DNA from: Octopus vulgaris
Lineage: Eukaryota
Reading direction: 5' to 3'
NCBI GenBank assembly: GCA_951406725.2
Contig: OX597822.1
Location: 47,120,001-47,184,000, forward strand
Length of the DNA stretch: 64,000 bases
Translations under genes and position numbers: made by a program
Notes under the pieces: model-generated
Seen by the model: the letters and a program-made list of their open reading frames with translations, nothing else
The model's database searches: none
What the model was told of the DNA's origin: nothing
Shown here: one piece after another, positions 3,081 to 53,832 of the stretch
How the letters are laid out: every line of letters begins with the position of its first letter
Numbering within the stretch: the first letter of the stretch is position 1

Positions 3081-3369
3081 GTGTCAGCGTGCGCGTGTAT
3101 TGTATCTTAGAAGTGTCATAACTCCAGTAAAAAAATTGTTTCAACATACGAGTTCACAAGTAGAATCTTGCAAACCAAATAGAAAAAAACCTATAAATAC
3201 ACACACACACACACGCATACATATATATATATATATATATATACACGTTGCGAGAGGTATTTGAGAACATATTTGATAATTTAATAAAACAAAGCTAATC
3301 TAGCCAAAACGAAATGAATTTTAATTAAAATTTAAGCACATATTCTTGATAAGCTTTTTTTTTTATCAG

Positions 3370-29074: not shown

Positions 29075-29420
29075 CCCACTGATATTTATAGTGCTTTAAT
29101 ACTACACACTCGTAAGAACTCTTATTTCACGACAAATGCTGTAGTAAACGGTCTGTCAGCAGTGTATATACATTAAATATGATTCATAGATGGCTATTTT
29201 AATCTGATACTGTCTCACTTGCATATGCCAGATTTTTAATCAGCCGGCCGGTTTTTCACATCAATGAATGAGTGATTCATTTTTTTCTTTATGGGAGGCA
29301 ACAAACTCTTATCCAAACATGTAGCTGGCTACGAATATGCACCATTGAAAAGGCTCCAAAAGGCTGAAATGCATCTGGTGCTCTCGCTGTCGGGACAATT
29401 TTCTGTCTTTTTCTGTCCAT

Positions 29421-32182: not shown

Positions 32183-32215
<33 letters not shown>

Positions 32216-32218
32216 CTG

Positions 32219-32437
32219 TTGTGTCTGGGGAGAGTAATTTTCTTTTTGTGCCTTATAATGTAACACAATCAACAGTAAAATTTCTACTTATTTTTATTTT
32301 TATTTTCCTATTGAAAAGGTTGCAAGATGCAACGAAAATTTTAGGAAAATAAAAATAAGAAATAAGTGGAAATTTTACCGGTGAGAGTGTTACATTATAA
32401 AACACAAAAAGAAAATGACTCTCCCCAGACACAACAA
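32219..32437 (+). ncRNA. Rod-like hairpin element capped by a hammerhead-like motif with a U3-A8 core
   Basis: ~90-bp imperfect stem (TTGTGTCTGGGGAGAGT...ACTCTCCCCAGACACAA) closing TTTTCCTA-TTGAAAA-G-GTTGC(AAGAT)GCAAC-GAAA-ATTT-TAGGAAAA (32303-32349). Confidence 0.6.
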
Positions 32438-33186
32438 TATGCTTCAACACACGAACTCATATAAAGAATCTTGCAAACCAAATACAAAAACGAAATATAT
32501 ATATATATATATATAATACAAACTGGGACAAGAACGCATAACATTTAGAAGACGATACAAAAAACACGGACGGGACATTCGAAGCCTTCAATCTTCAGTC
32601 AAGAACCGGATCATCCTCGCAATTTCGGCTGATTAATCTTGAGATTGCTCCAATCTGGCCAGCCCCAAGGAAAAACTAAGGTAAGCGCATTAGATTCCTT
32701 GGAAAAAAGCTTCGAATGCATACGAAACAAGGACGGAAAACGGACGATGTTACACGAATATGAATACAAAAATAAGGACGGAAAACGGACATATATAAAA
32801 TACACTTTAATTGAAATAAAGATTCCCCAAAATTAAACATATCTAATATAATGTAAATGTCAGTGAGTCATATTTTTTCAACTTTAATAAATCCTTTCTT
32901 CTGGAAGCACAAGGCCTCAAATTTTGGGGGTAGAGATCAAGTCGATTACATCAACCCTAGCACGTAACTGATACTAATTTTATCAACACCAAGTGGCTTA
33001 GTGCATAAAAACCTGGATTACGATAAATTTTATACATAAATATAAGAGAGTAACCACCATGTGGTCTACTCTAGCACTAAAAATAGATCCGCTAGGTTTC
33101 AGCCACAAAAAATTGTTTCCGATGAAAGTTAGCACGACTACTAGCGCAAACGAACAGGGCAAATAAACATAACAAAAATGCAGATT

Positions 33187-33265
33187 AGTTCAGGACAATT
33201 GTTTCGCTATTAATAAATTATGTAATTTTACTCACATAACATATCTGTAGCTCTTCAGCCGAACC
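33187..33265 (-). ncRNA. Type I hammerhead ribozyme (mirror copy of 33564-33642)
   Basis: Exact reverse complement of the plus-strand copy. Confidence 0.85.
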
Positions 33266-33563
33266 CGTCCAGAATACAATTTACCCGACCGCACGCTAGA
33301 TTTCACCATAATGATAAACACACGTGCGGCCCAGTCGATTGCATTCGCTGTTATAATTTCAAGTGCCCCTGCCATAGCCCGCCAAAATTCACAGAAACAG
33401 ATACTACATCCAAAATTAAATGTAGTATCTGTTTCTGTGAATTTTGGCGGGCTATGGCAGGGGCACTTGAAATTATAACAGCGAATGCAATCGACTGGGC
33501 CGCACGTGTGTTTATCATTATGGTGAAATCTAGCGTGCGGTCGGGTAAATTGTATTCTGGACG

Positions 33564-33642
33564 GGTTCGGCTGAAGAGCTACAGATATGTTATGTGAGTA
33601 AAATTACATAATTTATTAATAGCGAAACAATTGTCCTGAACT
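33564..33642 (+). ncRNA. Type I hammerhead ribozyme, canonical core
   Basis: Stem I GGTTCGG/CTGAACT, CTGAAGA(33571), stem II GCTA...TAGC with inner TTATGTGA/TTACATAA, GAAA(33624), palindromic stem III ACAATTGT, GUC site (after 33635). Confidence 0.85.
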
Positions 33643-33893
33643 AATCTGCATTTTTGTTATGTTTATTTGCCCTGTTCGTTTGCGCTAGTAGTCGTGCTAA
33701 CTTTCATCGGAAACAATTTTTTGTGGCTGAAACCTAGCGGATCTATTTTTAGTGCTAGAGTAGACCACATGGTGGTTACTCTCTTATATTTATGAATAAA
33801 ATTTATCGTAATCCAGGTTTTTATGCACTAAGCCACTTTGTGTTAAATGGATGTACTATTAAATTAGTATCCAATTTTCTCACCCTTATTAGT

Positions 33894-33960
<67 letters not shown>

Positions 33961-35988
33961 CTGCTTGCTTAGCCAGCGGGGTGGCGTCATTTGAAGGCTA
34001 AATCAATGCGAAGCGCATTGTGACCAGCGATGTGTAGCAACATCTGATAGCCTGGTCTGTCACGTGATCACGTGATATATATATATATATATATATATTC
34101 ATATATACGACGGGCTCCTTTCAGTTGCCGTCTACCAAATCCACTCACAAGGCTTTGGTCAGCCCGAGGCTATAGTAGAAGACACTTGCCCAAGGTGCCA
34201 AGCAGTGGGACTGAACCCGGAACCATGTAGCTCGTAAGCAAGCTACTTACCACACAGCCACAATATCAATAGGCATTTAAGGTTTCTACCATACACACCA
34301 CAATAACTTTCTACCAGTTGTATTAGATGAAAAATTTTCCCTTTGTTTCTCTCTTCTGTCACGAATGCTTTAATTCCTCGACGAGCTCACATTGTTTTGC
34401 ATTCCTCTTGCTTCTCTATCTGCGTCACCTAATTCTTTTTTACCCGTTCCTTACCATACTATAGATATTCCAGTCTCTCCGGACTTTGTGCCAGTTGTCT
34501 AACTTCTCCAAACCTTTTATTCATGGTGTACTGCGTGGTTTTCCAACTTTTTTTTTACAGAATTGGCTTCGTTTTTCTTTTCCTTTTTTTTTACTTCATA
34601 TATCAGTGTTGATTTCTAATTAGATTTTCTCCAATTTTTCTATTATTTTTCTGTTATTCCTCTTCTCTCCCTGAACTGGCATCCTTTCTCTCCTTTTTGC
34701 TTCGCTTGTTCATTTTTTTGTGTTTTCTTTTTCTTCCCTCGGTTTATGCGCTTTACATTCCGACACGTGTACATATCACTATTGCATCCATCTCTCCCCT
34801 CTGCGTACTTCACTAATTTTCTTCCTTCACATGTTTGTACTAGTGTTGAATTGTAATTATTCTTTCTCCAATTTTCTCTTCTTCTTTCACTTCTTTTCTC
34901 ACCCTCAACTCCTTCCTTTCTCCTTTCACTTCGCTTTTCCATTCCTTCCTTCCATGTACTTGCATCTCATACCCATACCCTTGCGCACACTTCCATCACA
35001 CATTCTACGATTCTCTTGCTTTCCCTTTTACCTCATACTCGTTCCCGCTCCTGTTTCTTCACTCTCACGTTTTCCTCACACACAATATGATTACTAGAGT
35101 TATGACTCTTACACAACCTAATAATCCTATACTTTAATTCCACGAATAATTTTATAAAAATCAGGAAACTAACATTTATTTTGCTTTATTTGAACAAAAC
35201 GTCACCCCCAACTTAAGAAATTGATCACCAATTTTGACCCAAAACGTGCAAAATTCTAGCGGTGTTGGGGTTCACAACGCCTGCTCAAGTTTTCACCAAA
35301 CGTGATGTGCTGACTCAATGCAATACAGAAACAGTACATCTGAAATTTCAGCTTTCTAGTTGAAGTAGTTTCAGAGTTAGAGGCTTTTGAAACTATAATC
35401 ACTAGATGGCACTAGATCCACACTTCAGTATTTCTGCTGCCTAAATCCTTGTAAACGCAAGAGAGATGCATAATAAAAGTGTACTTATACATTTTTAAGA
35501 TTACTGAATTGAAATTGCCGTATGCAAAGGTTCAAAACTAGGTTATTTTAAGACAGAGGCTACTACAAGCATTCGATAATATAGAAAATTTAAAGCAATA
35601 CATATTTTCAACTTTATAGGTCTAATTCCAATTTTAAATAACTGTACAAGAAAAAGGTTGCTGAATGTTAGCAAATTTTTAAACATAACAAAGAGTTAAT
35701 GCTTTGTCAGATAAAATAAATCGAAGCTGAAGTTTCTCCTTCTTTTTACAAACATCATAAAGATCTTGAAGGCACTTGACTTCCCGTTCTGCACTCTGAT
35801 TTGAGCTGAGAATTTCCAGTTTTAATGATTCTCAACACCAAAAGTTTTTTTTTACAGAGTTCAATGCTGTTTTATGAACTTGCAGGCTACCACATAACTT
35901 CTGATAATCATGTGCATTGAACATTTGCTCAGTAAACCAAAAATCTGTTCAGCTATAAGAAATGAATCGACAAATATTGAAAAGCAAA

Positions 35989-36293
35989 ACTCTTGAACTC
36001 TCTCTCCAAAGTTCTTTTCAACTTTCCCTCGCGATACTTGTCGGCTATCGGACTCGTCCCCGTATTTAGCCTTGGATGGAGCTTACCACCCGCTTTGGGC
36101 TGCGTTCCCAAGCAACCCGACTCTCGGGCCGATGAACACCGCCGATCGCCGCCGGCTCCGAATGGGCCTGGCACCCGCTCTGGGCAGCCCCGATCGAGGG
36201 GACTCGAACCTAGCCGGGCGAAACGATCGACCGTGTACGACCCTTGCGCCACAGCTCTCGACGACCGGCGCGGCCGACGAGATTCGGCGTTGT
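35989..36293 (-). pseudogene. 28S rRNA fragment (D1 region), dispersed copy
   Basis: GC-rich island; minus strand reads CCCAAAGCGGGTGGTAAGCTCCATCCAAGGCTAAATAC...GAGGGAAAGTTGAAAAGAACTTTGGAGAGAGAGTTCAAGAGT, the conserved LSU segment. Confidence 0.93.
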
Positions 36294-36864
36294 ACTCATC
36301 TAAAATAACTGTTATTTCTTTCACAACAGTATTGGCTTTTTCCGTTTGGTAATTGGAGTGCTTCTAACTTAACTTCTCATTGTTCATTCTTTAAAACTAG
36401 CACTTGGTATTCTTGGTCATCAATACATTTACCATCAAAATGCAATTATCAGTTTTCTAAATGTAATGTTTACTTCATTTTTTAAAAAAATGTTAGCAGC
36501 TTCTTTGATAGTCAACCTGTAAATACCAGTTTCGGAAGGAGTCTTGACATTGATTCCATCTTGAGATAATTGTCGACAAACTGTTGCTGCTTTTGGGGTT
36601 GGTAACTTGGAAGATATTTCTAACTCGGTTGCAGTTAGTAATATGAAATTGTTCATTGACTTTTTGATACAGGAAATTGTTTAATTCCCAAAAAATCAAA
36701 AAGTCATAACTCATTACACATAGATACACATATACGCACACACAATACTTCATACCCTCACAACCCTACGATATAGAGAAAGGCAAGTCAGTTCAGGGTC
36801 ATCGCCTTTCGGACCAATTACTCCACGAGACTCAATGGAACTACTCAAAGCCGATTTCTATGAA

Positions 36865-40698: not shown

Positions 40699-40849
40699 CA
40701 TAAGGGACTAAAGCCATCTGAATATGGCTAGGGACAGGGCAGGGTGGTGGGGGTGTTACTGTTGCATTTAGCCCCAGGCGAACATCGACGTCACCAGATA
40801 GGCCCGACACCGTCACGGTGTCCTTTAACCTGCAAAGGGAGGTAATTCC

Positions 40850-40933
40850 CCGATGAAGCGGAAACCACACACGGACCATGGTTTCAAGGTGTATTGCCCA
40901 TCGTCGGCGTGTGGTAGGCTTCCGCTTCCTCGA
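40850..40933 (-). ncRNA. Hammerhead motif (mirror of 41133-41216)
   Basis: Exact reverse complement. Confidence 0.7.
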
Positions 40934-41132
40934 CGAACACTCACTCTGCAGGATATTCATATATAGATTTTCAAGCAAAATACATTTGCTGATTTAGTCC
41001 CTTATGTTATCGAGCAGTTACTGTCTATATCTCTTTTAGAGAATTATTATTGCTTTCGAACAGATTTTCGAAATCAGCAAATGTATTTTGCTTGAAAATC
41101 TATATATGAATATCCTGCAGAGTGAGTGTTCG

Positions 41133-41216
41133 TCGAGGAAGCGGAAGCCTACCACACGCCGACGATGGGCAATACACCTTGAAACCATGGTCCGTGTGTG
41201 GTTTCCGCTTCATCGG
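41133..41216 (+). ncRNA. Type I hammerhead motif with U4C core variant
   Basis: Long stem I (GAAGCGGAA..ACCACACG / CGTGTGTGGTTTCCGCTTC), CCGACGA(41159), weak stem II TGGG/CCTT, GAAA(41181), palindromic stem III ACCATGGT, GUC site (after 41192). Confidence 0.7.
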
Positions 41217-41412
41217 GGAATTACCTCCCTTTGCAGGTTAAAGGACACCGTGACGGTGTCGGGCCTATCTGGTGACGTCGATGTTCGCCTGGGGCTAAAT
41301 GCAACAGTAACACCCCCACCACCCTGCCTGTCCCTAGCCATATTCAGATGGCTTTAGTCCCTTATGTTATCGAGCAGTTACTGTCTATATCTCTTTTAGA
41401 GAATTATTATTG

Positions 41413-53760: not shown

Positions 53761-53782
53761 AATCCGAGATGCAGCACGGATT

Positions 53783-53832
53783 TTTGTCAGTGAACAGGTC
53801 GCGGATTTTAGCGACGAAAATATTTTGACAAA
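53783..53832 (+). ncRNA. Hammerhead motif with G3-C8 core
   Basis: Stem I TTTGTCA/TGACAAA, core GTGAACA+G, stem II GTCGC/GCGAC, GAAA, palindromic AATATT, UUU site. Confidence 0.7.

Follow-up and report, generated by a model that had tools for sequence, protein, structure and literature searches.

A U3-A8 minimal hammerhead motif probably caps a 5'-inverted insertion of a Neptune-like Penelope-like element in Octopus vulgaris

The rod-shaped hairpin at positions 32219 to 32437 of the window, by which we mean the whole stretch of 64,000 nucleotides of Octopus vulgaris DNA analyzed here (contig OX597822.1, positions 47,120,001 to 47,184,000 of the forward strand), very probably arose when the pseudo-LTR of a Neptune-like Penelope-like element (PLE) was inserted, 5'-truncated and 5'-inverted, into a (TA)n tract. 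At its apex would be the minimal type I hammerhead that is conserved in this element; the motif has a U3-A8 core and is likely a weak ribozyme assisted by dimerization or by protein, and the rod itself is likely a by-product of reverse transcription.

A sequence-only reading of this DNA had described a long imperfect stem capped by a TTGAAAA/GAAA hammerhead with U3-A8, and sequence and fold agree with that description. The 219 nt fold as a single rod with -118.6 kcal/mol (z -21.8; none of 200 shuffles was equally stable), and the aligned arms comprise 95 nt with 9 mismatches and 1 gap, as counted from the alignment. The apex parses on the plus strand as a type I hammerhead: CTA (32308 to 32310) is the 5' strand of the native 3-bp stem I and is followed by the core TTGAAAA (U3-U4-G5-A6-A7-A8-A9; 32311 to 32317), an extra G (32318) between positions 9 and 10.1, stem II with its loop (32319 to 32333), GAA (G12-A13-A14; 32334 to 32336), the palindromic stem III AATT (32337 to 32340), U17 (32341) and TAG, the 3' strand of stem I (32342 to 32344). 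Stem II is formed by GTTGC (32319 to 32323) and GCAAC (32329 to 32333), has 5 bp with a predicted pairing probability of 0.99 to 1.0 and shows covariation across families. The core follows the hammerhead rule N3-UGA-N-N8-A9 ... GAAA ... UH with a Watson-Crick 3-8 pair, here U3-A8 with U as H17, and the native motif has the extra base before a helix II closed by G10.1-C11.1, the short helix I (3 bp) and the short palindromic helix III (AATT). Self-cleavage of this motif is predicted from its sequence, and since hammerhead numbering makes 32341 position U17, the cut after 32341 had been placed correctly. The palindrome assigned to stem III was also found, but not in its full extent: stem III is AATT alone (15.1, 15.2, 16.2 and 16.1), and the outer letters of AAAATTTT are A13, A14, U17 and U1.1, which lie outside it. 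Among the 150 of 199 matches of an Rfam scan that were listed, the hammerhead family was absent, and the output of a repeat finder on the window was dominated by microsatellites.

The left arm of the rod (32216 to 32310, minus strand) is the reverse complement of the sequence downstream of the motif and not native upstream sequence: the part of the element between the predicted cut and the first 3' end is present here a second time, in inverted orientation. The right arm (32342 to 32414, plus strand) consists of the TAG and the remaining 5' untranslated region of the PLE. It is followed by the first ca. 27 codons of the PLE open reading frame (ORF) (32415 to 32495, plus strand), in which the first common 3' end lies near 32436, with a one-sided tail of about 60 nt from there to 32495; this ORF continues in full copies, and the window copy is without 2 nt near 32435, within the ORF start. 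The (TA)n target flanks the insertion on the left (32190 to 32215) and on the right (32496 to 32515). A tail fragment that had been noticed near 3135 to 3190 is indeed present at 3137 to 3187 (plus strand; 82% over 51 nt) and represents a diverged piece of the same or a related PLE family.

Genome-wide, the rod junction of the window was found in 8 exact copies and the native upstream flank, with which stem I has only 3 bp (CTA/TAG), in 2,344. These numbers do not support the idea that the rod is part of the functional unit; the long stem likely does not belong to the ribozyme but goes back to a rare accident of insertion. It is highly improbable that the hammerhead and its rod form an independent mobile unit, a viroid-like rod or a MITE-like foldback whose long stem I stabilizes the U3-A8 core, despite the very stable fold, about a dozen copies with the same junction and a predicted pairing probability of stem I that rises from 0.25 to 0.27 in the native form (calculated for a copy with one point change in GAAA) to 0.95 to 1.0 in the rod. 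Apart from the junction counts, the outer ends differ among rod copies, many other junctions exist, and the tail is found on the left arm (L002-L004 and L006) or on the right arm (window and L009), as would be expected of independent insertions. A MITE, foldback or viroid-like rod was rejected because there are no fixed terminal inverted repeats and because arm lengths and junctions vary. We also rejected a longer, bulged native stem I, which is not kept between families.

Variable 5' inversions are typical of PLEs, and the rod is such an inversion, joined at the CTA microhomology that is common to both arms. In 63 of 90 loci, which had been picked by an anchor downstream of the motif, the element was present on both strands within 700 nt; 53 loci had direct head-to-head junctions, at widely varying positions, and the arms overlapped in 19. 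The 3' ends of the copies fell at two places about 60 nt apart, often with one arm ending at each, and target duplications or (TA)n flanks were seen in many copies. An inverted 5'-truncated arm, a one-sided tail and AT-rich targets, the marks of a Neptune/Nematis-type PLE insertion, were all present. Such a structure would arise if each strand of an AT-rich cut served the enzyme for starting one cDNA, at two internal sites within the first 30 codons, and if the two cDNAs were then joined at a short shared sequence, here CTA. CTA is found on both sides of the junction because stem I is self-complementary; if an inverted arm ends at the cut, it has CTA in common with what precedes the core, which as a microhomology would be enough for a junction that happens to lengthen stem I to 95 bp.

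Near-identical truncated copies of the U3-A8 PLE with the same inversion are clustered at distances of 15 to 19 kb (G000:C1:206.65-206.85 Mb; L161-L166), which is a segmental duplication rather than a series of new insertions. The window also contains a perfect 258-nt inverted repeat with a 75-nt spacer (40738 to 41328), which is probably a further young inversion of the PLE type.

The end of the left arm coincides exactly with the predicted cut, and a sister copy (L236) ends there as well. The junction could then be read as a mark of ribozyme cleavage, with the left arm copied from a cleaved RNA before a jump to the 5' strand of stem I, but we consider this quite unlikely, since the CTA microhomology alone predicts the junction and the predicted cut shows no enrichment of copy ends. 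Genome-wide, 15 breaks fell exactly on the cut; an offset of -8, used as a control, had 25, and about 10 of these resembled point changes. None of the 106 arm ends at the 53 head-to-head junctions was within 2 nt of the cut; 1 of 97 copies started at the cut and 2 of 97 at -1, and in the sister family the count was 1 of 78. Cleavage as the cause of the rod junction was rejected for lack of any excess of ends at the cut. Three RNA runs and one contig set on the locus had about equal strands and no piled ends, with the left arm skipped as a repeat, and were uninformative on cleavage and on the start site.

The motif belongs to a coding element. It is located in the 5' untranslated region or pseudo-LTR of a PLE, 73 to 74 nt before the ORF start, and the "tail" of the truncated copies is the start of that ORF: in at least 8 of 40 fetched ORF-start loci (L334, L336, L338, L348, L352, L353, L365 and L366), the motif and this leader region are followed by MTLPRHNRICFNTR, which runs into the gene. 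Upstream, at the locus L074/L159, a cysteine linker, a GIY-YIG domain (PF01541, E 1.1e-6) and a microsatellite-like 3' region precede the motif; downstream of GIY-YIG and upstream of the ORF start, the motif is located in a PLE pseudo-LTR. The linker of the own-family copy L074 has lost one cysteine; in the ORF of a young sister family, which has open frames of 1,310 to 1,312 amino acids in many copies, the linker is CX4CX2C and is intact in L187. A single ORF with a reverse transcriptase (RT) plus a GIY-YIG domain at its C-terminal end was found, the RT being visible by its YVDD region in translations; the Pfam RT match was weak (E 0.008, below the cut-off, in one of three sister proteins), and two of the three sister ORFs gave no Pfam match. 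A sequence search of the PDB gave no match. With a fragment of the linker, 4,083 candidate places were found in the genome, of which 150 were scored, and a homologue search limited to longer proteins returned 172 candidates, none of them significant. These motifs, rather than a tree, suggest that the PLE is Neptune-like. A non-LTR retrozyme was rejected because the upstream sequence runs into the endonuclease gene and the downstream sequence into the ORF; a tandem monomer junction after the tail was not found among the flanks listed.

The young sister family is probably active (2,998 exact anchor matches; L190:2816-3, minus strand, and L300-L329, e.g., G000:C1:59396929). All 35 descriptor hits in this family show a C at position 9 of the hammerhead; older relatives (L356 and L332) have A9. 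An unrelated LINE with an open frame of 1,045 amino acids lies near a truncated PLE (L159:5227-8364, minus strand).

Orthologous hammerheads were found 56 to 96 nt before the ATG in each of three families, and in all three of these large families the 3-8 pair is Watson-Crick. The ORF start of the U3-A8 family is homologous to that of the sister family (49% over 150 amino acids, E 1.5e-50, BLASTP) and to that of the G3-C8 family (32% identity over 144 amino acids, E 1e-24, BLASTP); the G3-C8 family also stands behind a GIY-YIG gene (L284). The homologous ORF starts, together with the same motif position and layout, confirm the common ancestry with the G3-C8 family that had been suspected from the window, where the orthologous G3-C8 hammerhead with its leader is located at 53768 to 53831 (plus strand). 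The three Watson-Crick identities of the 3-8 pair claimed for the window could all be located as well: U-A at 32311, G-C at 53790, 63046 and 53753 (minus strand) and C-G at 33571 and 33258 (minus strand).

Between the U3-A8 family and the young sister family, five pairs are changed on both sides: one in stem I (CTA/TAG to CCA/TGG), the 3-8 pair (U-A to C-G), two in stem II and the pair 15.2-16.2 (A-U to G-C). The covariation that the sequence-only reading had proposed to look for is therefore present as compensatory changes in stems I, II and III and in the 3-8 pair across orthologous PLE families. In an alignment of eight sequences, 93.8% of the 48 cells for the 3-8 pair and stem II are paired and 11 cells are changed on both sides; none of 500 shuffles reached the observed value and slid controls gave at most 2, but the sequences were hand-picked from 41 loci (window and ORF-start loci) and are related, which inflates the counts, so that the result of the shuffles should not be read as a probability. 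A contiguous stem I was not obtained for L362 and L367, two older relatives. A descriptor left free at positions 3, 8 and 9 gave 103 hits in 1.39 Mb, a sample enriched for these PLE families, and 101 of the hits had a Watson-Crick 3-8 pair; the reversed sequence gave none. All orthologues can be parsed in plain type I order with contiguous stems, and a re-wired (non-circularly permuted) hammerhead was rejected.

A chance resemblance in AT-rich sequence, a worry voiced at the outset and understandable from the A/T-rich core and the short native stems, has a probability of practically nil. The exact 35-letter core has 1,767 matches in the 2.8-Gb genome and the reversed pattern has none, descriptor hits are absent from the reversed 1.39 Mb, and the compensatory changes at the same place in orthologous PLE families effectively refute chance. 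The family also keeps the TTGAAAA/GAAA register, with core letters conserved to 95 to 100% and G12, at a CpG, to 88% in 131 fetched copies, a set that was partly selected for the core. Judged by these patterns of substitution, the hammerhead is under selection.

Several other sequences attracted our attention. A second U3-A8 hammerhead-like candidate (29339 to 29382 of the window; 3-8 pair at 29345) has a 6-bp stem I and ATGCAT as stem III; no second copy was found in the 1.39 Mb fetched, so that it may be a decayed member of a different family. In two older copies of the G3-C8 family, positions 3 and 8 are G3-G8 (L357:381-440; L359:559-618, minus), a possible intermediate from C3-G8, and L344 combines stem II of the U3-A8 family with stem I of the G3-C8 family and C3. 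A perfect 425-nt inverted repeat in the window (32985 to 33844) carries mirrored C3-G8 hammerheads (33258, minus strand; 33571, plus strand), and related sequences in L192 recur with a period of 532 nt, as in a retrozyme array. Directly after the rod (32561 to 32620, minus strand) lies a multi-copy repeated motif consisting of CTGAAGA, a hairpin and CGAATG, and positions 35732 to 36376 (minus strand) contain a fragment of eukaryotic large-subunit rRNA, likely a dispersed pseudogene.

The low pairing probability of the native stem I counts against a working ribozyme, and the predicted 4-nt AAUU duplex is unstable (+2.2 kcal/mol), whereas a longer A/U palindrome (9-mer) is favored (-2.2 kcal/mol). 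As a duplex, this longer palindrome would compete with the active fold, since it would occupy A13, A14, U17 and U1.1, and the U3-A8 family could therefore be weak or inactive. Together with the 3-bp stem I, the 2-bp stem III, U17, the C at position 9 of the young sister family and the insertions that show no sign of cut ends, this would fit a decayed or non-cleaving relic that is kept as an RNA structure, e.g., in the promoter or leader. We regard such a relic as rather unlikely. The 3-8 pair forms only in the active hammerhead fold, and it is Watson-Crick in the 101 of 103 descriptor hits from the enriched sample and in the three large families. In vitro data point in both directions: minimal PLE hammerheads were described as poor cutters (PMC4209133), but U3-A8 was reported to be active (PMC3088659). 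With a stem III of 2 bp, a dimer mode is plausible.

Copy starts accumulate 13 nt upstream of the core, in many cases behind an extra G, and 30 of 97 copies start 40 to 45 nt upstream of the cut. This suggests uncut, capped templates. In 50 fetched copies the 13-nt leader is intact; 23 of them are without native sequence before the leader (two partially native), and a G directly precedes the leader in 12 of these 23. When leader starts were scored by eye in the first 100 of 1,677 genome matches, 41 were found, with 22 G, 10 A, 6 T and 3 C before them, and after removal of 10 Gs that are due to an inverted arm or to self-duplication, 12 of 31 remained G (p 0.005 against 18% G). For the G3-C8 family, 20 of 29 non-native starts, again scored by eye in the first 100 of 894 matches, had a G (16 of 25 after removal of 4). 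An untemplated G is an accepted mark of a copied cap in L1 and SVA (PMC4859970). We infer that the start at C|AG is capped and that the templates are uncut, as with the PAc element discussed below; most templates would then be uncut RNAs that start 13 nt upstream of the core, and cleavage would usually not set copy ends. The young sister family, which shows no pile-up at the leader, was counted against a capped start.

Exons end in C or A before AG according to the splice consensus. Since the letter before AG is mostly G and not C or A, we rejected a leader to which exons of the host had been spliced. In the G3-C8 family, the native sequence immediately upstream of the leader (window 53768; L282-L298) contains look-alikes of a branch point, a pyrimidine run and a CAG acceptor, at the pile-up of 5' starts. 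This splice-site look makes a tiny first exon, ending in GAG, possible, and Penelope carries an intron in the corresponding region (PMC2377424).

In the predicted fold of the native RNA from the leader onward, stems I and II are kept and the first 7 nt pair over the start codon. We put forward a leader switch as a speculative reading that is, on balance, doubtful. The same hammerhead would have been kept through three 3-8 pairs (C-G, U-A and G-C) in one Neptune-like PLE lineage whose insertions stem from uncut capped RNA starting just upstream, and the ribozyme would be a switch in the mRNA leader rather than the definer of the template. Because of the pairing over the start codon, cleavage could turn the transposition template into translated or degraded RNA, and the thousands of solo motifs would be cDNAs that run from cap to tail and had their priming site at the 5' end of the mRNA. 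This reading builds on the translation driven by ribozymes that is known from RNA viruses (PMC13725137).

Taken by itself, the highlighted rod is an ordinary PLE stub: its core variant has been published and its stem is accidental. The three abundant orthologous families (U-A, C-G and G-C), together with the young sister family and its intact ORF, are a natural series in which to ask whether PLE minimal hammerheads cut. The defined 5' start with the extra G and the missing ends at the cut bear on the role of PLE hammerheads, and both are in line with in vitro work in which uncut RNA was the template.

Literature searches listed no paper on this octopus U3-A8 PLE family. The U3-A8 core itself, taken for a third functional core variant in the sequence-only reading, had already been published: about 1,300 U3-A8 minimal hammerheads were reported with Schistosoma PLEs (Cervera and De la Pena 2014, PMC4209133), and natural U3-A8 hammerheads, with covaried cores stated to be active in vitro, were described by Perreault et al. 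(2011, PMC3088659). The latter share the compensatory core pair with the octopus motif but are, in the accessible text of that paper, not PLE minimal motifs. According to the accessible text of the former, minimal PLE hammerheads have an extra base, G10.1-C11.1, a palindromic 15.2-16.2 and low activity as dimers. The octopus motif resembles those of S. mansoni and other metazoan PLEs in its short helix I, the extra nucleotide between 9 and 10.1, G10.1-C11.1, the palindromic 15.2-16.2 and the U3-A8 core, and also in its mostly solo copies, opposite-strand pairs, predicted action as a dimer and pseudo-LTR location (PMC4209133). It differs from the S. mansoni motif in host and PLE family and has a helix I of 3 bp and a helix II of 5 bp; in comparison to the published minimal hammerheads, the three octopus families with U-A, C-G and G-C can be aligned via their ORF starts.

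Craig et al. (2021, PMC8557442) described PLE insertions in which a 5'-truncated copy is inverted and the tail is found on one side, and also the CX2-5CxxC linker of Neptune and Nematis. The octopus element shares with those PLEs the inverted arm, the one-sided tail, the (TA)n targets and the C-terminal GIY-YIG behind a CX4CX2C linker, but its tail has about 60 nt instead of 30 to 40, and its clade is assigned from motifs and not from a tree. The non-LTR retrozymes (Li et al. 2026, 10.64898/2026.07.22.740005) likewise combine a type I hammerhead with a PLE connection; as presented in the accessible part of that work, they are non-coding tandem units, whereas the octopus family continues into a coding PLE and showed no array of tandem monomers. 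In PAc, the Poseidon element of Anolis, RT starts at two internal sites in the ORF start and uncut RNA is the main template (Frangieh et al. 2024, PMC11167929). As in PAc, the octopus hammerhead is located at the junction of pseudo-LTR and ORF, two internal RT starts within the ORF start would define the tail, and the main template would be uncut RNA. The PAc hammerhead has a C3-G8 core and the ORF of PAc begins within stem II, whereas the ATG of the octopus element is 73 nt past the cut; and unlike PAc, as far as the accessible text of that study describes it, the octopus element shows a defined 5' start with an extra G.
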